A stretch of DNA of 32,000 nucleotides from Psychrobacter cryohalolentis K5 (GTDB lineage: Bacteria; Pseudomonadota; Gammaproteobacteria; Pseudomonadales; Moraxellaceae), in assembly GCF_000013905.1 (NCBI RefSeq), contig NC_007969.1, positions 1,350,001 to 1,382,000 on the forward strand. The letters are read 5' to 3'. Below the pieces are notes generated by a model. That model searched no databases and had not been told where the DNA came from. It saw only the letters and a list, made by a program, of their open reading frames with translations. Shown here piece by piece: positions 12,518 to 21,781 of this stretch (positions are counted from its first letter, which is position 1; every line of letters begins with the position of its first letter). The translations under genes were made by a program, and so were the position numbers.

Positions 12518-13135
12518 ATGAATACATCTGTTACACCGTCTATTGTACTACCTCCTGACGAGAATTCTCTTAGCGTATCTAATATATCGATGGCCGTTAT
12601 TTACCATAGTAACTACGGTCATACTCAACGTGTCGCGGAAGCAATCGTGACGGGTGCTCGTCAGCAACTATCTGAAGCGCAAGCCAAGGCTGTCGATGTC
12701 AATGACGTCGATTGGGAGTTTTTAGATCAAGCAGATCTGTTGGTTTTTGGTAGTGCGGTATATATGGGCAGTGTGACAGCAGGCTTTAAGACTTTTATGG
12801 ATGCGACATCGAAGCGTTGGTATCATGGCAAATGGCAAGGCAAGTGGGCAGCAGGTTTTGCCAACTCAGGTGGGCTTAGCGGCGATAAGCTTGCTGTACT
12901 ACAGCAGATTTGTCTTTATAGCATGCAGCATGGGATGAATTGGATAGGGTTGCCACTTAGACCGACCGGACATGAGCCCCATGATCTAAACCGTTTATCG
13001 AGTAATTTGGGTTTGATGACCCAGTCGCTTGATGGTCCACCTGAAGAAACACCAGGCGCGGGTGATATAGATACGGCGATTTGGTTTGGTGATCATCTGG
13101 CAAAAACCATCATAAAACATCAGCCTGCCTCATAA
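12518..13135 (+). CDS. Flavodoxin-like fold FMN protein (WrbA / NAD(P)H:quinone oxidoreductase-like)
   Basis: MAVIYHSNYGHTQRVAEAI (FMN phosphate-binding loop pattern), LVFGSAVYMGSV and AAGFANSGGLSGDK are typical of flavodoxin/WrbA-type proteins. The true start may be ATG 12590 (MAVIYHS...). Confidence 0.75.
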   Translation: MNTSVTPSIVLPPDENSLSVSNISMAVIYHSNYGHTQRVAEAIVTGARQQLSEAQAKAVDVNDVDWEFLDQADLLVFGSAVYMGSVTAGFKTFMDATSKRWYHGKWQGKWAAGFANSGGLSGDKLAVLQQICLYSMQHGMNWIGLPLRPTGHEPHDLNRLSSNLGLMTQSLDGPPEETPGAGDIDTAIWFGDHLAKTIIKHQPAS

Positions 13136-13169
13136 AAATTCAAAAGCTATTTATTAAGTAGTAAATACC

Positions 13170-13204
13170 AAAAAGCAGATATCAAACTAATATCTGCTTT
13201 TTTT
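13170..13204. terminator. Bidirectional rho-independent terminator
   Basis: The hairpin is gcagatat-caaacta-atatctgc, preceded by AAAAA and followed by a 7-T run. It sits between the converging flavodoxin-like gene (+) and the small lipoprotein ORF (-). Confidence 0.8.
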
Positions 13205-13227
13205 ATTGTCAGCTTTTTATATCTATC

Positions 13228-13398
13228 TTAGTGCTCGTTATTTTCAACGGCAATATCTGCAACTGGGACAGTTTTAACCAACAGATTTTTGCTCGGAGCG
13301 TTTTTGACAGGAATCGGGCTTTCGACAAATTGAAACGACTGACAACCTGTCATAAATAAGGCAGCTGTGAATATATAGGTCAAGGTTAATGACTTCAT
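13228..13398 (-). CDS. Small (56 aa) putative lipoprotein, below the ORF-track size cutoff
   Basis: Hand translation gives MKSLTLTYIFTAALFMTGCQSFQFVESPIPVKNAPSKNLLVKTVPVADIAVENNEH*. It has an n-region and h-region followed by a lipobox-like MTG|C. A weak GAGA lies about 9-12 nt upstream of the ATG. The bidirectional terminator lies about 25 nt after the stop. Confidence 0.45.
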   Translation of the reverse strand: MKSLTLTYIFTAALFMTGCQSFQFVESPIPVKNAPSKNLLVKTVPVADIAVENNEH

Positions 13399-13980
13399 AA
13401 TGATATCTCAAAAGGCAATCGGCGACGGTGAAATAGCGCTCATCATAACCAATGCACGGAATTGTGCAAGATATTATCTCATTATAAACGGAAGTAGTAC
13501 GCTCTGTAAGAAACGTTTAGGATGGGCGTTATGTATCCATTATGTACAGCCAAAATAGGATAAGAAGAAATGTTGGCTTCATTATCTAGCCATAATTTAC
13601 CAGTAATTCATGTTTATAAATATATAGAAACAAGCTTTTATAACTTTACTAATTGTTTTATAAAGAATTAATTATTTTACCTAAATTTATAATATAAAAA
13701 GGTATAACCGTCTATTAAAAAATATATCCAATTATTTATCTTTTTAAGTTTTGTAAAAAAATGATAGCAATGCGTTACTATCCAGGTAATAGAAGTGAAA
13801 TAGTCTTACAGTAGTGAGGTGAACAGACATTTTTTAGCAATGATCTATAAATGGATATTTTCTTACAGTTTTATCTTGCACTGATAATAGCAAAAAATAA
13901 TGATAAAAATTCAGCTTAACAGTGGATGTTATGCGCAACAATCATAAAAATATATGAGATGTTAGCGAAATGAGGGAATT

Positions 13981-15435
13981 ATGAAGCGATTTTCTATGAT
14001 GTTATCGATGCTTGCCATTGGTATGGCCTCCAGCGCTGCGATGGCTGAGGATACGAGCCTTACTAATACAAGCTTACCTAATGCGACCCTACCTAATATC
14101 AGTCCTGCCAATAGCGTGCTCGTCAATCGAGGTGCCTATATTGCTCGTGCAGCGGACTGTATGGCGTGTCATGGCGAAGACTATACTGGCGGTACAGCAA
14201 TAGAGACCCCTATGGGGGAGATTTATTCTACGAATATCACCCCCTCCAAACGCTATGGTATCGGCAATTATACTGAAAACGATCTAAAAAATGTACTACA
14301 AAAAGGTCGTGCGCCTAGCCATATGCTATATCCTGCTATGCCATATCCTTCTTATAGTGGTATGAAAGAAGAGGATATCAACGCGCTGTTTGCCTATCTG
14401 CAAACCGTTCCAGTAGTAGATGAAGCGCCAAAGCATAAAACTGACCTACCATTTCCTTTCAATATTCGTGCGCTAATGCTCGGTTGGAACTTTTTAAATG
14501 TTCCTTCTACCCAAGGACGTGATGGCCTCAATGAGACGCAGAAGCGCGGTGAGTATCTGGTCAATAATCTAGAACACTGTGGTACTTGCCATACGCCACG
14601 CAACAGCACTATGGGCTTCGATAAAAAAATGTATTTATCTGGAGCGCAGTTAGGGCATTGGTATGCACCTAATATCACCCCTGACGAGTCAAGTGGTATT
14701 GGCAGCTGGAGTGAGCAAGATATCATTACTTATCTACGCACCGGCGAGCTTGATCAGCGCGCTTATGCTGGTGGTCCAATGGGTGAGGCAGTCGCGCATA
14801 GTACTCAATATCTAAAGCAAGAAGACCTAAGCGCGATTGCCTCTTATCTAAAAGCAGTACCTGCCATTCAAACCGATGATAAGGTATCTGCCATCGATGT
14901 CTCACGTTTGCCAACCCGTGTAAACGAATCTATCACCCATGATTTACTTGCCCAAAAAGATTATTTGGCTCAAGCCAAAACTGCTGTTAGTAAGGGCAGT
15001 AATTCACCAGAAGCCTTGTATTTGGCGACATGCGGTAGCTGTCATGGTGTGGACGGCTATGGTCAACCTGATGCACAGTATTCACCCATCGTAGGATTAA
15101 GCAGTCTGCGCCGTGATAAGCCTGATGTGCTCGTCAATATGATTTTGCATGGGGTCGTTGGCAGCACCAATACCTCACCGATTATGCCGGCCTTCTCTGA
15201 TGAGCTGAGCAGCGAGCAAATTGCCAGTATCGCCAATTACGTACGCATCAGCTTTGGCGGTCTTGCCAGCAGCGATGTGAGTGCAGCCGATATCGAGCGC
15301 ATCGCTGCCACTAGCGCCGAAAAGCCATTTTTAATTAAATACGCAGGCTTGCTGGCGATATTGGGTATTATCGTCGCCATTGCTGTCATTATATTTATTA
15401 TTCGAGCCATCATACGCTCTAAGCACCGTCACTGA
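13981..15435 (+). CDS. Membrane-anchored triheme c-type cytochrome, resembling the cytochrome subunit of flavoprotein dehydrogenase complexes
   Basis: It has a Sec signal (MKRFSMMLSMLAIGMASSAAMA|ED) and three CxxCH motifs (CMACH, CGTCH, CGSCH) spaced about 140-150 aa apart. A C-terminal TM helix follows (LLAILGIIVAIAVIIFIIRAII). A GAGGG SD lies 5 nt before the ATG. Confidence 0.9.
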   Translation: MKRFSMMLSMLAIGMASSAAMAEDTSLTNTSLPNATLPNISPANSVLVNRGAYIARAADCMACHGEDYTGGTAIETPMGEIYSTNITPSKRYGIGNYTENDLKNVLQKGRAPSHMLYPAMPYPSYSGMKEEDINALFAYLQTVPVVDEAPKHKTDLPFPFNIRALMLGWNFLNVPSTQGRDGLNETQKRGEYLVNNLEHCGTCHTPRNSTMGFDKKMYLSGAQLGHWYAPNITPDESSGIGSWSEQDIITYLRTGELDQRAYAGGPMGEAVAHSTQYLKQEDLSAIASYLKAVPAIQTDDKVSAIDVSRLPTRVNESITHDLLAQKDYLAQAKTAVSKGSNSPEALYLATCGSCHGVDGYGQPDAQYSPIVGLSSLRRDKPDVLVNMILHGVVGSTNTSPIMPAFSDELSSEQIASIANYVRISFGGLASSDVSAADIERIAATSAEKPFLIKYAGLLAILGIIVAIAVIIFIIRAIIRSKHRH

Positions 15436-15633
15436 TTTGGGTTTCATTTCACCTTTCATCAAACAGCGTAGTAATAAATACTATAAAGCTATGTTAGATA
15501 CTGATTATAAGACAAGGATTATGGCAATTAGATAGAGCGCTATCGTTTGGCAATTATAGACAACAACACGCCAAGTACATTGATAACGATGCGTCTACTA
15601 TCCTGCACCATTGTCTACTTTAAGGATATTATT

Positions 15634-17235
15634 ATGAAAGACATGCTTCAATCACCTACGCGCCGTCAATTGCTTTCGATGATTGGTAAAACAGCGGGCG
15701 CGACCGCCATGTATCAAGCAATGACGACCTTGGGGTTTGCTTCAGAATCCAGTTTTAAGGAAGCAATGGATCTTAAGGGCGCACCTGCTGGCGCGAGCAT
15801 TGTTATTCTTGGTGCTGGTCTTGGTGGGTTGACAGCGGCTTATGAGCTGCGAAAAGCGGGCTACGATGTCAAAGTGCTTGAGTTTCAAAATCGTGGTGGC
15901 GGTCGTAGTTGGACACTGAACAGCGGTGATAAATATACTGAGCTTGGCGGCGAAGAGGTCACTTGTGATTTTGAAGAAGGCAATTATTTCAATGGTGGAC
16001 CATGGCGTTTGCCAAGCCACCACTATGCCGTCTTTCATTATTGCAAACAGTTCGGTGTTGAGATGCAACCCTTTATCCAAACCAATGACCGTGCTTATTT
16101 GCATCGTACTAATCATTTCAATGGCGTACCGCAGCGTTTGGGTGACATCAAAAATGACATTCAAGGTCATGTGGCGGAGCTGCTATCGAAGTCAGTAAAC
16201 GTGGGTGGTCTGGATCGCTCAGTCAATACTGAGGACAAAGAGAAGCTTCTAGAAGGGCTAAAAGGCTGGGGCGTGCTCGATAAAGACTATCGCTACCGCG
16301 CCAGTAATGAGACTACCAAACATCGTGGCTTTAGTGTGTTCCCAGGTGGCGGTTTGATGCCAAATGAAAAGCCGTCAAAGCCATTACCAATCAGTGAGAT
16401 ACTAGATTCAGGCATGTGGGGAGATATTTATAGCAATCACATGACCTATGGACATCAGCCGACCATGTTTCAGCCAGTTGGTGGTATGGGTAAAATCGGT
16501 GATGCTTTCACCCGCGAATGTCGCGATATGATTGAGTTTAATGCCAAAGTCACTAAGATTCATCAAGATGATACTGGCGTTACAGTCGACTATGTGGACA
16601 GCAATAGTCCCGATGGTGCAACCAAAACCATCCGGGCAGACTGGTGTGTCTGCAACATACCTTTAACCGTATTAACCCAGCTCGATATCAATGTCTCAAA
16701 ACCAATGAAACAGGCGATGGCAGCGGTTCCTTATGACACTTCCTATAAAGTAGGTTTGGAATTTAATCGCCGATTCTGGGAAGAAGACGAGTGGATTTAT
16801 GGCGGTTTAACCTATACCAATATGCCTATTACCCAAATTGCTTATCCGTCAGAAAATATGTTTAAAGATGGCTCAGGTGTATTGCTTGGTGCCTATGGTT
16901 TTGGCGCGACTTCTTATAAGTTTAATACTCTAACACCGCAAGAGCGTATCAATGTGGCGCTTGCCTACGGTAAATATATCCATCCGCAGTACCCAAAGGA
17001 ATTCCGCGCCGGAACATCTGTCGTCTGGCACCGTATCCCATGGACACTCGGCTGCTACGGTATTTGGAGTGAGTCGAGTCGTGAGCAGCATTACGATAAC
17101 CTATGCAGTATAGACAACCGTATTGTGCTGACAGGTGAGCATTGCTCTCATATTCCTGCGTGGCAGGAAGGGGCTATATTATCTGGCATAGATGCCGCTA
17201 AACGCTTGCATAAAAAAGCAAAAATGCTGGGTTAA
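15634..17235 (+). CDS. Tat-exported FAD-dependent amine oxidase family protein (L-amino-acid oxidase / monoamine oxidase fold)
   Basis: The ORF track starts at TTG 15547. I prefer ATG 15634, with AAGGA 7 nt upstream, which gives MKDMLQSPTRRQLLSMIGKTAGATAMYQAM, a twin-arginine signal. It has a dinucleotide-binding motif (VILGAGLGGLTAAYELRKAGYDVKVLEFQNRGGGR). It is colinear with the LAAO pattern as recalled (GGPWRLP, VGGMGKI, FWEEDEWIYGG..T..P...I.YP, GEHCS....WQEGAILSG). Confidence 0.85.
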   Translation: MKDMLQSPTRRQLLSMIGKTAGATAMYQAMTTLGFASESSFKEAMDLKGAPAGASIVILGAGLGGLTAAYELRKAGYDVKVLEFQNRGGGRSWTLNSGDKYTELGGEEVTCDFEEGNYFNGGPWRLPSHHYAVFHYCKQFGVEMQPFIQTNDRAYLHRTNHFNGVPQRLGDIKNDIQGHVAELLSKSVNVGGLDRSVNTEDKEKLLEGLKGWGVLDKDYRYRASNETTKHRGFSVFPGGGLMPNEKPSKPLPISEILDSGMWGDIYSNHMTYGHQPTMFQPVGGMGKIGDAFTRECRDMIEFNAKVTKIHQDDTGVTVDYVDSNSPDGATKTIRADWCVCNIPLTVLTQLDINVSKPMKQAMAAVPYDTSYKVGLEFNRRFWEEDEWIYGGLTYTNMPITQIAYPSENMFKDGSGVLLGAYGFGATSYKFNTLTPQERINVALAYGKYIHPQYPKEFRAGTSVVWHRIPWTLGCYGIWSESSREQHYDNLCSIDNRIVLTGEHCSHIPAWQEGAILSGIDAAKRLHKKAKMLG

Positions 17236-17279
17236 TTGCGCCAAAAATAGAGACAATTATTATAAATTCAGAGGCTATC

Positions 17280-17924
17280 ATGAACACTATCATCATGAAA
17301 ATAACTATCATGAAAAGCATGACACCTAAGATGCTGATGATCATGCTGTTAAGCAGCAGCGCATTATTAGGCTGTAGTCAAAAAGCAGGCGATGTAGAGA
17401 CGATAGCCAGTAAGCACGATGCTGAGCAAACGGTTGACTATCAAGCAAGTCGCAATACAGGCAGCTGGGGCGCTGTCTATATGAGCCGTGACGAGCTAAA
17501 AGCGCAGCCTATCAATGTCGTTGATGACAGCTCATTACCCAATATGGAAAATGACCCTATTATTAGCGAGTGGGAAGCAAAATTTGAAGGATCCAATGCC
17601 TTTATTACGACCGATGGCAAAAAGCTCTATCATGACTCCTGTGCTGGCTGTCATATGCATAAAGGCGAAGGCGCTTATGGTGCAGGCTATTATCCGCCAC
17701 TGGCTAACAATAGCAAAATGCAGTCAAAATATTACATCATTAATATACTCATCAATGGTTTCCGCGGAATGCCATCGTTTCATATGATGATGAATGATGA
17801 GCAAATGGCGGCAGTGACTCAATACGTCGTCAGTGACTTAAATAGTTATACGGATACAGTGACCGCTGAAGACGTGGCCAAGCTGAGACATGCCAATCCG
17901 CCCGGTTATGATCCAAGTGAATAG
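17280..17924 (+). CDS. Monoheme class I c-type cytochrome, probable lipoprotein
   Basis: A GAGG SD lies 5 nt before ATG 17280. The signal peptide ends in the lipobox LLG|C. There is a single CAGCH heme motif and a distal GMPSF Met-ligand region. It begins 44 nt after the flavoprotein gene. Confidence 0.8.
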   Translation: MNTIIMKITIMKSMTPKMLMIMLLSSSALLGCSQKAGDVETIASKHDAEQTVDYQASRNTGSWGAVYMSRDELKAQPINVVDDSSLPNMENDPIISEWEAKFEGSNAFITTDGKKLYHDSCAGCHMHKGEGAYGAGYYPPLANNSKMQSKYYIINILINGFRGMPSFHMMMNDEQMAAVTQYVVSDLNSYTDTVTAEDVAKLRHANPPGYDPSE

Positions 17925-17979: not shown

Positions 17980-18012
17980 AAAAAAGCGCCCAATCGATGA
18001 TTGGGCGCTTTT
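17980..18012. terminator. Bidirectional rho-independent terminator between the cytochrome gene (+) and tolB (-)
   Basis: The sequence aaaaaa-gcgcccaatc-gat-gattgggcgc-tttt forms a GC-rich 10-bp stem flanked by an A-run and a T-run. Confidence 0.85.
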
Positions 18013-18041: not shown

Positions 18042-19334
18042 CTATCTAGGACTGGCTGACCAGACAGGTGAGCGAATCGTACCTTGCCCAGATTTACCAA
18101 AGGCTTCGCCGCCGTTTAGTGATTTGATAGTCAGTACGCCCTTACCACCTTGCTTTGATGCATAAACGACACGCTTACCATTTGGTGAAAAGCTCGGTGC
18201 TTCATCGATACCGGTATTGCCCAAATTAGCAGTGACCGCGCCGCCGCTGTTCATAACAGCCGCTGAGCGCCCATTTAAAAAGGCAATTTGCGTACCATCA
18301 CTACTAAATTGTGGGCTGGTCGCATAACCACTATTAGATACTTTGGTTGTGCGCCCTGAACCAAATTCATAACGATAAATCTGCGGCTTATTAAATCCAG
18401 TCTTATCAGATACAAAGACAAAAGATCTGCCATCAGGGGCGTAGCTTGGCTGTACTTCACTGCTTGGCCAATTGGTCAGTCGTCTTGGTTGACCGCCGCT
18501 GGCACTCATCTCATAAATATCAGCACTGCCTTCAAAACTACTCGAAAACAGTATTTTGCTGCCATCTGGCGAGAACGAAGGACTTAAGTTGCTACCAGGG
18601 AAAGGCGTCAATGGCGTTGCACCGCCGCCGCTCACGCTTTGCACATAAATAACAGGATAAGATTTATCTCGCTGTACTGAATAAGCGATACGATTGCCAT
18701 CGGGCGACCATGCTGGAGAGAAGATAGAGCCTGAAACCTCAGTAATGGTTTTGGCGTTTTCGCCATCAGCATCCATGACTTTTAAGCGCGAGACTTTTGC
18801 TTTGCCAGTACCAATTTCTTCAATATAGGCAATACGCCCTGAGAAGTCCCCTGGAATGCCGGTAATGAGCTCGTACACTTTATCTGCGATGACGTGACCG
18901 GCATAGCGCATGCTGTCTTTATTGTTATCAGCGGTTAAAGTCTGCTTGCCTTCGATCACGCGTCCTGTTTTAACCTCAATCACTTCATAATCGGTCACCA
19001 CTTTACCGCGGCTACTGCGCGTGCTACCTACGACAAGATAAGGAATCCCCATACTTTGCCATACCGGTAATGTCCCTGCCAGCTCGCTGCTACTGCGTGG
19101 CTGCTGCGGTAGATTCTGACTGGTAACTTTGAGCTCAGTTTTGCTCAAGTCATTGACAATAATAGGCGATAACACACTATCACCAGCAAAAGGCACAAAA
19201 GCCACTTGATTCTGTTGCACAGGAATCTCGTAATCCAATTCTAAAACGACAGGCGCTGCCAGCACACTTGGCGCGATAAGTAAGCTTGAGGCGCTAGCAA
19301 GTAATGATATGAGTAGTTTTTTATGAGTGCGCAT
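18042..19334 (-). CDS. tolB: Tol-Pal system periplasmic beta-propeller protein TolB
   Basis: It has a signal peptide ending in VLA|AP. It is colinear with E. coli TolB as recalled (MRYAGHVIADKVYE..TG, RIAY, SPAWSPDG, SPSFSPDGSKI, PSFSPNG). Confidence 0.95.
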   Translation of the reverse strand: MRTHKKLLISLLASASSLLIAPSVLAAPVVLELDYEIPVQQNQVAFVPFAGDSVLSPIIVNDLSKTELKVTSQNLPQQPRSSSELAGTLPVWQSMGIPYLVVGSTRSSRGKVVTDYEVIEVKTGRVIEGKQTLTADNNKDSMRYAGHVIADKVYELITGIPGDFSGRIAYIEEIGTGKAKVSRLKVMDADGENAKTITEVSGSIFSPAWSPDGNRIAYSVQRDKSYPVIYVQSVSGGGATPLTPFPGSNLSPSFSPDGSKILFSSSFEGSADIYEMSASGGQPRRLTNWPSSEVQPSYAPDGRSFVFVSDKTGFNKPQIYRYEFGSGRTTKVSNSGYATSPQFSSDGTQIAFLNGRSAAVMNSGGAVTANLGNTGIDEAPSFSPNGKRVVYASKQGGKGVLTIKSLNGGEAFGKSGQGTIRSPVWSASPR

Positions 19335-19470
19335 GAGTAAGTTAAGCTCCTAAAACAGTATGAGTGTCATTTTTATAGGTTATTAGTCCGTCATAAAGAT
19401 AAGGTAGTGCCTTCTACAGTACAAGCTGTTTAAGGTAACGTTATCAATAATATAAAGCATGAGCAACTGA

Positions 19471-20493
19471 TTAATTACTGCCCTTAAATTGAACGGTAAA
19501 GGTCGGGTATTTTGGATCGTCAGCATCGATTGGTAAGCTGCCGGTATTTAGTACGGCTTGTTTGGCGGCTTCATTGACAGCTTCATCCGGTCCTGAAGCA
19601 GTAACATTGGTAATATTACCGCTGGCATTGACTGTAATTGTGAGGGTCGCACGCTGGGTTGAGCCCTTTGCTGCAGTTGGTGGATTATAGTTGCGTCTGA
19701 TAAGATTAATGATTTCACTATTACTAGCACCGCGACTGCCACCTGATGCTGAGCGGCTGTTGCCTTTTGAAGGGCTTGAGGTTGTGCTATCACCGGATAA
19801 AGTCGACTGCCCATCGTTCGATAGACTAAGGGTTTGACCTGAACTACTAGAGCCGCCCGTATTGATTTCTATATTTCGGTCGGTAGCAGTTGGGCGCTTA
19901 ATCTTGGGAGGATTGTTTTGTTTATTGCGGAAATCCCCAAGCCTTTTTTGCTCTTCAATCAGCTGCTGTCGTCTTTCTTTTTCAATTTGGTCATGTTCTT
20001 CTAAGACGGATTCGTCTAAGCGCGCGGCCCACTCAGCCATACTGCGCTCATACTCTTGGTTTTGCTCAAGCAGGCGTTGATGCTGCTCTTCACTCATTAG
20101 CATCGGGCTAGTAGCAGATTCATCCGAGCGTGTGAAGACAGGCACTTGCTGAGAGTTTGGTTGAGCAGGATTTGGAGTGCTGACGCTGCCATCAAAGGCT
20201 TCTGTTGGCGTAGCTGCACTACTTGCACCGCTTTCCGCTTGCATAGCACTGGCTGCGGCGGCGCGATTGGCAAGGATTTGACCTTGCATCTCGGCTAACT
20301 GTTCAGGAGATACCATGGTCGTTTCAATACTACCTGCGGTCTCAACGTCCATATTTTGGTAGGTATAGATAAGTATACCAATGACAAGACCATGTGCCAG
20401 CAAACTGAGCAGCGTGGGTAAGGTTAGCCCATTGCCTTCGGGTTCAGTTGGTACATAAACGGTTGGAGCCTTGTGCATGGTAGTGATACTCAA
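19471..20493 (-). CDS. tolA: Tol-Pal system protein TolA
   Basis: It has an N-terminal TM anchor (LTLPTLLSLLAHGLVIGILIYTY) and a charged helical middle region (EEQHQRLLEQNQEYERSMAEW...EKERRQQLIEEQKRL). It ends in a TolA/TonB-type C-terminal domain. Its position between tolR and tolB supports the call. Confidence 0.8.
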   Translation of the reverse strand: MSITTMHKAPTVYVPTEPEGNGLTLPTLLSLLAHGLVIGILIYTYQNMDVETAGSIETTMVSPEQLAEMQGQILANRAAAASAMQAESGASSAATPTEAFDGSVSTPNPAQPNSQQVPVFTRSDESATSPMLMSEEQHQRLLEQNQEYERSMAEWAARLDESVLEEHDQIEKERRQQLIEEQKRLGDFRNKQNNPPKIKRPTATDRNIEINTGGSSSSGQTLSLSNDGQSTLSGDSTTSSPSKGNSRSASGGSRGASNSEIINLIRRNYNPPTAAKGSTQRATLTITVNASGNITNVTASGPDEAVNEAAKQAVLNTGSLPIDADDPKYPTFTVQFKGSN

Positions 20494-20585
20494 AAACGTG
20501 ATACTAAAAGATAAGCTACATCAGATTATCTGCTTTATTATAACCGGCTACACCAAAACGGCTGTTTTTTAATATTATAAAATGA

Positions 20586-21044
20586 TTAAACCGCTGGTAT
20601 AGGCAATGGAGCGCCAGTTAATAGTCCAACCTTCTGAATACCAGCTTGTTGCAACGTTGCCATCAAAGTCATGATAGCGCCATATTGATTGTTTTGGTCG
20701 GCATTAATCATCACTTGTACTGGTTGCGCACCGGCATCACTGCTTTGACTTTGCAAAGTCGAGAGGGTATCAATCAGCTCAGGCTCACTAACAGGTAAGT
20801 CAACATTGCTCTCATAACTGATAAAAATCTCGCCGTTACCGGTCAGAGATACAATGACTGGTAGCTGGCTTTGACTCATGGTGTTGGTTTGCTCTTTTGG
20901 CAAATCAACATCGACGCCAGTAATCAGCATCGGCGCGGTCACCATAAATATCACGAGCAGAACGAGCATTACGTCGATATAAGGAACAACGTTCATCTCC
21001 GCATTCAGTGCTTTTTTCTCACGGCGATAGGGACTTTGTTTCAT
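20586..21044 (-). CDS. tolR: Tol-Pal system protein TolR (ExbD/TolR family)
   Basis: It carries the ExbD/TolR signature [22 protein letters not shown]. Its start overlaps the tolQ stop by 4 nt (ATGA at 21041-21044). Confidence 0.9.
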
Positions 21045-21781
21045 AGACCAGCCACCTGAGTGCTTTGGTTGGCTTGGTTGGCTTGGCTTACTTGAGTGCT
21101 AGGCTGCGGGCTTTCATTACTGGTTTCGCGCTGCAGCATACCCGTCATCTCATCACAGAATAAGGCACGTGAATCATATAATCGACTAGATTTAGCGGTA
21201 AAATGGTTATAAGCCAATACTGCAGGAATAGCGGCAAACAAACCCATAGCGGTGGCAATTAATGCTTCTGCAATACCTGGTGCCACAGCGGCTAGGGTAG
21301 CTTGTTCATTTTGTGACAACCCCAAAAAGGCATTCATGATACCCCAAACGGTGCCGAACAAACCGACGTAAGGTGCAACGGAGCCGATACTGGCAAGCGT
21401 TGTAAGTCCTGACTCCAAAAGTAGCTGCTGACGACCAAGACCAACCCTAAGCTTACGCTCAACGCCATCGATAATGTCATCTTTTGGTTGACGTTTTTTG
21501 TGCATTCTTAAGTATTCAGAGAAGCCAACATAGAAAATCTGCTCAAGACCTTGGCGCTCAGGTGAGCCCTGAATACCTTGATACAATTTCGCCAAATCTT
21601 CACCCGACCAAAACCAAGCCTCGAACTGTTGGTCAAAGTTTCTGGCAGTGCCAAGCCGCGCACTCATACGAAAAATAATCACCCAACTGAGTAACGATGC
21701 TAATAACAATAGAGCCATCACGATCTGAACCAGCAGGCTCGCTTGAGTAATAAGGTCGATAATATTTAAGGATTCAGGCAT
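21041..21781 (-). CDS. tolQ: Tol-Pal system protein TolQ (MotA/TolQ/ExbB proton channel family)
   Basis: It has three TM segments and the conserved region [22 protein letters not shown]...[24 protein letters not shown]. The low-complexity Q/N-rich C-terminal tail is encoded partly by a 9-bp repeat. Confidence 0.93.

Follow-up and report, generated by a model that had tools for sequence, protein, structure and literature searches.

Many flavoproteins of the amine oxidase fold hand their electrons to a cytochrome c and not to O2, and an operon of three genes in Psychrobacter cryohalolentis K5 is compared with them here. The operon lies on contig NC_007969.1, within positions 1,350,001 to 1,382,000 of the forward strand (the window, that is, the whole stretch of 32,000 nucleotides that was analyzed and to which the coordinates below refer). 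All on the + strand, it encodes a triheme cytochrome c (gene 1, 13981-15435, 484 amino acids), a flavoprotein with a twin-arginine translocation (Tat) signal (gene 2, 15634-17235, 533 amino acids, Pfam family PF01593) and a monoheme class I cytochrome c lipoprotein (gene 3, 17280-17924, 214 amino acids). Judged from sequence comparison, the three products probably form a periplasmic L-amino acid dehydrogenase complex that respires the electrons of amino acids.

Many Tat-signal enzymes of the amine oxidase fold whose operon includes a Sec-exported cytochrome c have been identified as dehydrogenases by stopped-flow measurements, and adjacency of the cytochrome gene is a better predictor of dehydrogenase character than the Tat signal; the Tat-signal flavin amine oxidases that act as periplasmic oxidases are the ones that lack a neighboring cytochrome c (Akram et al., 2025; PMC12224317). 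That survey covered no more than the 5000 best BLAST hits of NicA2 and in its text names neither L-amino acid enzymes nor triheme partners (PMC12224317); in one of its supplementary files, neither "amino acid oxidase" nor any of the taxa sought occurs. The arrangement of NicA2/Pnao with CycN and of the surveyed enzymes, in which the gene for a Tat-exported flavoprotein of the amine oxidase fold adjoins that for a Sec cytochrome c, is found again in the Psychrobacter operon, and the delivery of electrons to the cytochrome instead of O2 is proposed for it as well. However, the surveyed partners are monoheme or diheme c4 cytochromes and never triheme proteins of the FdhC type, such as the Psychrobacter trio includes. 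With a Tat motif on the flavoprotein and an operonic gene for a Sec-exported cytochrome c, gene 2 is predicted to encode a cytochrome c-using dehydrogenase by the two features of that study. Neither the 60 best sequence matches of its product nor the 50 best by fold, these being LAAOs (L-amino acid oxidases), include NicA2, which places it outside the NicA2/Pnao clades 1-3. For this separate lineage the claim is therefore one of like function, not of membership in those clades.

A closer relative is found in Gluconacetobacter diazotrophicus, in which the cluster lao-cccA-ridA is needed for the conversion of tryptophan into indole-3-pyruvate (Rodrigues et al., 2016; PMC5053998). The lao product is a 533-amino-acid protein with a Tat signal, called an oxidase by its authors, and mutants in cytochrome c maturation lose 95% of the tryptophan-converting activity (PMC5053998). 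Imino acids produced by amino acid oxidases are hydrolyzed by RidA proteins, whose genes cluster with those for amine oxidases (PMC4433059). The Psychrobacter operon likewise encodes a 533-amino-acid, Tat-signal protein resembling L-amino acid oxidases (LAAOs), followed by a monoheme cytochrome c of the same family. It differs in having a triheme gene upstream, no RidA gene and a lipid-anchored cytochrome with a long linker, whereas the G. diazotrophicus cluster lacks the triheme gene and includes an exported RidA.

Triheme subunits homologous to the gene 1 product, with the same C-terminal anchor, belong to fructose dehydrogenase (FdhSCL), FAD (flavin adenine dinucleotide)-dependent glucose dehydrogenase, gluconate 2-dehydrogenase and related membrane enzymes of the flavoprotein-cytochrome kind. 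The catalytic subunit of these enzymes has the GMC fold, contains a 3Fe-4S cluster and is exported by means of a Tat-signal small subunit. A periplasmic active site would be common to them and to the Psychrobacter flavoprotein, and delivery of electrons to ubiquinone is presumed by analogy. By contrast, the catalytic subunit of the Psychrobacter trio has the LAAO fold, its own Tat signal and no cysteine cluster motif; there is no small-subunit gene, and an extra monoheme cytochrome is present. The closest solved structure, the LAAO of Rhodococcus opacus (2jae), is that of a secreted, H2O2-forming oxidase from a Gram-positive bacterium, for which we know of no cytochrome partner. It shares the substrate-binding residues of the Psychrobacter flavoprotein and has a Tat-type signal (PMC5053998). 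The L-amino acid deaminase of Proteus turns amino acids into oxo acids and ammonium and passes the electrons to the respiratory chain without H2O2 (PMC5053998). This is the same overall function as that proposed here, but the deaminase has the unrelated fold of D-amino acid oxidase (DAO), an N-terminal membrane anchor and no c-type cytochrome subunits.

The original prediction, made from the sequence of the window, knew NicA2 and Pnao as the only precedent, to which the surveyed enzymes and the orthologous G. diazotrophicus cluster must now be added. In the literature outside subscription journals, nothing beyond PMC5053998 and the NicA2 work was found on an LAAO with a triheme cytochrome or on a periplasmic L-amino acid dehydrogenase with a cytochrome c. 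The principle itself is thus published, and the three-gene layout with a membrane triheme cytochrome appears to be undescribed. A more detailed reading, which is put forward tentatively, is that the operon encodes an undescribed three-component L-amino acid:ubiquinone oxidoreductase, in which an enzyme of the LAAO fold is connected through an ancestral monoheme cytochrome to a recruited triheme subunit of the FdhC type. It would possibly represent a fourth independent, and very large, cytochrome c-dependent lineage of the amine oxidase superfamily.

The Flavoprotein

The open reading frame (ORF) of gene 2 as called mechanically begins at a TTG (15547), but a conserved ribosome-binding site (TAAGGA), together with an alignment of 34 Psychrobacter loci, points to the ATG at 15634 as the true start, giving the protein of 533 residues. 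Its N-terminus (MKDMLQSPTRRQLL) includes the twin-arginine motif TRRQLL (15658-15675, within SPTRRQLL), followed by a hydrophobic stretch that ends in GFA. The dinucleotide-binding motif GAGLGG occupies residues 60-65 (15811-15828). An amine oxidase fold and a Tat signal had been predicted for this protein, and both hold. The Pfam family Amino_oxidase (PF01593) matches with an E-value of 2e-52 (179.3 bits against a cut-off of 19.8), and 102 of 114 full-length family representatives, which reach down to about 30% identity, keep the twin-arginine motif; this argues against a non-functional signal.

Among solved structures, the best sequence match is R. opacus LAAO (7.9e-82), and the LAAOs of snake venom follow at about 1e-36. 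The AlphaFold model (mean predicted local distance difference test score, pLDDT, 85.9; residues 1-36 disordered) superposes on 2jae in Foldseek with template modeling (TM) scores of 0.84/0.93, a root-mean-square deviation of 2.3 Å and 34% identity in the structural alignment. Ranks 1-44 of the fold search against the PDB consist of oxidases of L-amino acids, L-glutamate or L-lysine and an L-amino acid oxidase/monooxygenase. In pairwise alignments Arg125 (GPWRLP), Tyr421 (LGAY), Lys372 and Ala509-Trp510 coincide with their counterparts in the R. opacus (2jae) and snake (1f8r) enzymes. In LAAOs the carboxylate of the substrate is bound by this Arg and Tyr; the lysine lies near the flavin N5, and the Ala-Trp pair belongs to the amino-group site. 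Across the family Arg125 never varies, and Tyr421, Lys372, Ala509 and Trp510 are kept without exception or in at least 90% of the sequences. [quoted passage not shown] Because this branch retains intact carboxylate-binding residues, an alpha-amino acid is far more likely as its substrate than a simple amine.

An Fe-S relay of the kind present in fructose and FAD-glucose dehydrogenases was considered for the flavoprotein and rejected; no clustered cysteine motif is present, and the conserved cysteines are scattered. One cysteine is found in the motif GEHCSH (residues 503-508, 17140-17157), near the C-terminal FAD/substrate site. Among flavoproteins whose operon includes the triheme gene (type A, see below), all 12 have this cysteine; among those without it (type B), in which the site mostly reads GEHASY, 3 of 72 do.

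The Two Cytochromes

The product of gene 1 begins with a Sec-type signal (residues 1-22, ending in AMA) and contains CxxCH motifs at residues 60, 200 and 351 (14158-14172, 14578-14592 and 15031-15045), in addition to which AMP, PMG and MPAF offer putative Met ligands for three class I heme c domains. A hydrophobic helix at about residues 454-478 (about 15340-15414), followed by the basic tail RSKHRH, forms the C-terminus. The Sec signal, the three hemes and the anchor had all been read from the sequence by the original prediction. Pfam Cytochrom_C matches in three stretches (4e-25), and the protein aligns nearly end to end with FdhC, the cytochrome subunit of fructose dehydrogenase (7w2j_C, 1.2e-93, residues 25-478 against 16-479 of the chain). 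It also matches the corresponding subunits of alcohol, FAD-glucose and aldehyde dehydrogenases, and the heme domains give weak CcoP-like matches. All 79 Psychrobacter copies contain three CxxCH motifs. An automated helix test is positive for only 39 of these 79 copies; by sequence, the C-terminal helix and positive tail are present in all four genera compared, including the homologues from Paracoccus, Halomonas and locus L085. On these comparisons, gene 1 encodes a triheme subunit of the FdhC/alcohol dehydrogenase subunit II type with a C-terminal membrane anchor.

The description of gene 3 as a monoheme class I cytochrome c lipoprotein is likewise borne out. Its product has a lipobox (ALLGC, with Cys32; LLGC at 17364-17375), a linker of about 75 residues, a single CAGCH heme motif (17640-17654) and a Met ligand within GMP (17769-17771). 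The lipobox, in the form L(L/S/T)GCS, was seen in the 14 copies read out of 80 in Psychrobacter, which cover both paralogues of the operon. Among solved structures it comes nearest to a triheme subunit's third heme domain (8hdd_B, 2e-13). The heme domain also aligns with the cytochrome c of about 140 amino acids encoded in type-B operons and shares with it a motif around the heme site, and by sequence the two are orthologous. In type A the monoheme cytochrome has a long N-terminal extension, which is lipid-anchored in Psychrobacter; the type-B protein, with a signal that is either plain or of the lipoprotein kind, lacks a transmembrane anchor. Neither cytochrome of the operon shows similarity to di-heme peroxidases in Pfam or among PDB sequence matches.

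Distribution and Origin of the Operon

Two arrangements of the flavoprotein gene can be distinguished. Type A consists of the triheme, flavoprotein and monoheme genes, and type B of the flavoprotein gene and that of a monoheme cytochrome c of about 140 amino acids, without the triheme gene. In Psychrobacter the order triheme-flavoprotein-monoheme is kept in 79 of 79 loci, the closest of which show 95% protein identity (e.g., in P. luti and P. glaciei). The operon occupies two sites in this genus, the syntenic one between a wrbA-like gene and tolB and a second, unrelated one (L035-L065, L068-L070, L072-L076 and L078), and many genomes have both; the flavoproteins of the paralogous operons are about 82% identical. 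In one locus (L028, 8710-12446) two operons stand in tandem. In Psychrobacter sp. ER1 (L046, 3817-5035) the paralogous triheme gene is split by an IS3-family element (orfA, orfB), with the flavoprotein and monoheme genes intact. The paralogous locus also includes PAP2 and Trk genes. At one such locus (L036, 3810-4424) the triheme gene is preceded, at a distance of 40 bp, by a co-oriented YceI-like gene. Members of this periplasmic family bind isoprenoid quinones, and the neighbor may hint at a link to quinone.

Outside Psychrobacter, type A occurs in a Paracoccus-type genome, in Halomonas, in an uncultured GC-rich lineage and in three metagenome contigs. In the Paracoccus-type genome the three genes overlap by 4 and 1 bases. 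Type-B relatives are about 55% identical (e.g., in Microvirga and Ottowia), and their cytochrome gene is often followed by one for a RidA with a signal peptide. The G. diazotrophicus cluster is of this kind: the peptides encoded by its primers fall in register with the flavoprotein (YPSHGYF at residue 404, QVIHPNY at 447) and the cytochrome (NYVRSH), which identifies lao-cccA-ridA (GDI2456-2454) as a type-B orthologue. The family is large, with 5222 homologues at E < 1e-20 among 8000 candidates scored and 543 clusters at the 50% identity level (E up to 1e-30). A search with the family alignment gave a metagenome sample of 80 loci. The monoheme gene lies directly 3' of the flavoprotein gene in 64 of the 69 with enough DNA and upstream in one more, an exported RidA gene follows the cytochrome gene in 18 of 56 (type B), and the triheme gene precedes the flavoprotein gene in 3 of 52. 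Co-conservation of the flavoprotein and its cytochromes, on which the original prediction had staked its reading, thus holds for the trio in all 79 Psychrobacter loci and in other genera, but the near-universal partner in the family is the monoheme and not the triheme cytochrome.

In a neighbor-joining tree all type-A flavoproteins group in one clade that lies within type B and spans Psychrobacter, Halomonas, Halopseudomonas, Oceanisphaera and Rhodobacterales. As a single nested clade, this indicates from the sequences that the triheme gene is a later addition, recruited once. The monoheme gene is present in every type-A locus whose downstream DNA was read, and one locus (L168) ends in a cut ORF of 123 amino acids. 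A search with the Psychrobacter triheme protein returned Psychrobacter matches only. With the L085 protein as query, the closest homologues came from taxa or contigs that also have the flavoprotein. In the three triheme homologues inspected (Halopseudomonas litoralis, Oceanisphaera avium and a JGI contig) the flavoprotein gene is next in every case; it is followed by a cytochrome c gene in H. litoralis and O. avium, and the JGI contig (L168) ends in the cut ORF already mentioned.

In Halomonas (L082, 2152-4223) a glnK-amtB-glnK group (PII and ammonium transporter genes) lies directly 5' of the operon in the same orientation; it would fit the release of ammonium from amino acids and hints at no more than nitrogen metabolism. 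The downstream cytochrome of Oceanisphaera (L167, 8103-9326) has 407 amino acids, about twice the usual size. In Halopseudomonas (L166, 8694-11479) the trio is followed by genes for a c3/c7-like multiheme cytochrome and a large ferredoxin-domain protein. Four soil metagenome loci (L110, L137, L145 and L146) contain tandem flavoprotein genes. In L110 each of them has its own monoheme cytochrome gene, which suggests repeated duplication of the flavoprotein-cytochrome pair.

Proposed Pathway and Alternative Explanations

In the proposed pathway, the flavoprotein would fold in the cytoplasm with FAD bound and be exported by the Tat pathway. In the periplasm it would oxidize an L-alpha-amino acid to the 2-imino acid with hydride transfer to FAD, and the imino acid would hydrolyze to the 2-oxo acid and ammonium, either spontaneously or, in type-B operons, with the help of RidA; the exported RidA of these operons fits a periplasmic 2-imino acid product. 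Reduced FAD would not be reoxidized by O2, the flavoprotein presumably being poorly reactive toward it, and would give up its two electrons singly to the monoheme cytochrome of gene 3. This lipid-tethered protein would relay them to the FdhC-type triheme cytochrome of gene 1 in the inner membrane, and the latter would reduce ubiquinone in the same way as its homologues in the dehydrogenases of fructose, alcohol, glucose and aldehyde. By analogy with known systems, the order flavin, monoheme, triheme is the most likely one, and quinone is the presumed final acceptor. Since the monoheme gene is kept wherever the triheme gene is present, the two cytochromes would be arranged in series, the triheme having been added and not substituted. 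The cell would gain ammonium, an oxo acid and respiratory energy without H2O2, and entry at the level of quinone would add energy conservation coupled to the bc1 complex, relative to type B, whose electrons must go to the cytochrome c pool. Oxidation of a periplasmic amine or amino acid with transfer of the electrons to cytochromes, the core of the original prediction, is thus supported by co-conservation and the Tat motif, and an amino acid is favored by the sequence of the active site.

Several points weigh against this reading. Oxidase or dehydrogenase character is not readable from sequence, and the clade 1 pairs that involve membrane-bound cytochromes reacted only slowly in vitro (PMC12224317). 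The nearest characterized enzyme, R. opacus LAAO, is a true H2O2-forming oxidase in spite of its Tat-type signal. The evidence from G. diazotrophicus is genetic only and may include polar effects. Electron-transfer order and quinone reduction are argued by analogy. No RidA gene is present in the operon of the window or in any type-A locus. Finally, the Ser at position +2 of the gene 3 lipoprotein would direct it to the outer membrane by the sorting rule of Escherichia coli, which complicates a tight complex with a triheme subunit in the inner membrane.

The oxidase precedent raises the question of whether gene 2 encodes an ordinary periplasmic, H2O2-producing LAAO that serves nitrogen scavenging or antagonism, with the cytochromes in another role such as peroxide-linked electron transfer. 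Its closest solved and characterized relative is an oxidase, the lysine near the flavin N5 that promotes the reaction with O2 in oxidases is conserved, and Tat-signal flavin amine oxidases that are periplasmic oxidases do exist (PMC12224317). These, however, are the ones without an adjacent cytochrome c, and adjacency is the stronger predictor (PMC12224317); here it extends to 64 of 69 loci and to overlapping genes in Paracoccus. The cytochromes show no similarity to di-heme peroxidases, and in G. diazotrophicus it is the cytochrome c maturation mutants that lose the LAAO-dependent activity (PMC5053998). An ordinary oxidase is accordingly regarded as very improbable. Only slightly less improbable is a substrate other than a proteinogenic L-alpha-amino acid, for example a polyamine, an opine, a D-amino acid or, as for NicA2, an alkaloid-like compound. 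In the window and in related loci, the paralogous one included, no gene for a transporter, a regulator or a catabolic enzyme indicates the substrate, and the neighboring genes give no hint of it. Moreover, the presence in many genomes of two paralogous operons with flavoproteins about 82% identical suggests different specificities. Such substrates are nonetheless hard to reconcile with a carboxylate-binding Arg/Tyr pair and an amino-group-site Ala-Trp that align with those of LAAOs and are conserved, or with 44 top fold matches that are all specific for L-amino acids. RidA, which hydrolyzes 2-imino acids (PMC4433059), is a frequent operon member, and the G. diazotrophicus orthologue acts on L-tryptophan (PMC5053998).

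If the enzyme is a cytochrome c-linked dehydrogenase, the triheme protein may still be a membrane-bound c-type carrier to a cbb3 or aa3 oxidase, bypassing the quinone pool and bc1. In type-B operons the only cytochrome c is small and has no transmembrane anchor, and electrons must enter at the level of cytochrome c. Class I hemes with His/Met ligands are usually of high potential, and the weak CcoP-like matches of the heme domains would favor the terminal-oxidase route, as would the oxidase-related genes beside two type-A loci (COX1/COX2-like in L085, Caa3_CtaG in L168). Every characterized full-length homologue of gene 1, on the other hand, is a quinone-reducing subunit (of fructose, alcohol, FAD-glucose or aldehyde dehydrogenase). 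A three-heme membrane protein would bring no obvious gain where a soluble cytochrome already reaches the oxidase, whereas entry at quinone would add bc1-coupled proton translocation, and the YceI-like gene directly 5' of a paralogous operon also speaks against the bypass, which is therefore considered rather unlikely.

Implications

Should a periplasmic L-amino acid dehydrogenase be confirmed, the revision of the view that all amine oxidases are oxidases would reach the L-amino acid oxidase branch and affect thousands of bacterial annotations. On the more tentative reading of a three-component oxidoreductase, most proteobacterial genes of this type now named "flavin monoamine oxidase," "L-amino acid oxidase" or "tryptophan 2-monooxygenase" would not encode oxidases. 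Cold-adapted and marine bacteria would have a peroxide-free route from external amino acids to ammonium and respiratory energy, and the need for cytochrome c in the auxin synthesis of G. diazotrophicus would acquire a mechanistic basis. Evolution would, moreover, have joined the triheme module of sugar and alcohol dehydrogenases to an unrelated flavoenzyme. In biosensors for fructose and glucose, triheme subunits homologous to it make direct electron transfer to the electrode possible, so a natural L-amino acid dehydrogenase with such a subunit, if real, would be an attractive biosensor scaffold.

Operon Structure and Surroundings

The three co-oriented genes and the strong terminator described in the original prediction are all present. 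A weak promoter-like site (TTAACA, 18 nt, AATCAT; 13916-13945, + strand; 9/12 in a consensus scan) lies about 35 nt 5' of gene 1, within an AT-rich intergenic region of 845 bp (GC of 0.325 for positions 13001-14000). Genes 2 and 3 are separated by 44 bp. The operon ends at a bidirectional intrinsic terminator (17982-18012) between it and the convergent tolB, which is common to both. This hairpin has a GC-rich stem of 14 bp and a 3-nt loop (-21.9 kcal/mol, z = -6.49; none of 200 shuffles folds as well); on the + strand UUUUCUUGG comes after it, and on the - strand a U-run.

Genes 1 and 2 are separated by a spacer of 198 bp (15436-15633, + strand), which contains the duplicated motif TGGCAATTA (15522-15530 and 15548-15556) and, at its 3' end, a conserved stretch with the ribosome-binding site. 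The gap and the duplication are exactly as the original prediction gave them, but the control region of its own that they had suggested for gene 2 is not supported by conservation. The motif occurs 4 times in the window against 0.59 expected, and its exact duplicate is found in none of 34 syntenic Psychrobacter loci (L001-L034). As a conserved control element it was rejected, the duplicate being absent from these loci and genes 1 and 2 abutting or overlapping in other genera; a role as a strain-specific site is conceivable. What is strongly conserved among the 34 loci is the last stretch of about 45 nt before the flavoprotein ATG (15590-15633, CTAC.. TGCAC.A.CGTCTACTTTAAGGA.ATTATT), which may be a translation or regulatory element; the remainder of the spacer is not conserved. 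The spacer contains no terminator-like or otherwise significant RNA fold (z = -0.3 and -1.1) and, by inspection, no match with sigma-54 spacing. Since genes 1 and 2 abut or overlap elsewhere, no terminator-like fold is found and the repeat is unconserved, co-transcription of the three genes is the simplest expectation from the sequence.

The operon is flanked by housekeeping genes (rluD, pgeF, a wrbA-like gene, tolQRAB, putA and xdh). An ORF of 56 amino acids with a lipoprotein-type signal (MKSLTLTYIFTAALFMTGC) occupies 13228-13398 on the - strand; the 845-bp region around it, which separates the wrbA-like gene from gene 1, is AT-rich (GC about 0.33). In the usual tol-pal layout pal follows tolB. 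Here tolQ-tolR-tolA-tolB (18042-21781, - strand) end at the shared terminator with no pal/ybgF 3' of tolB, and the operon sits where that layout would place pal.

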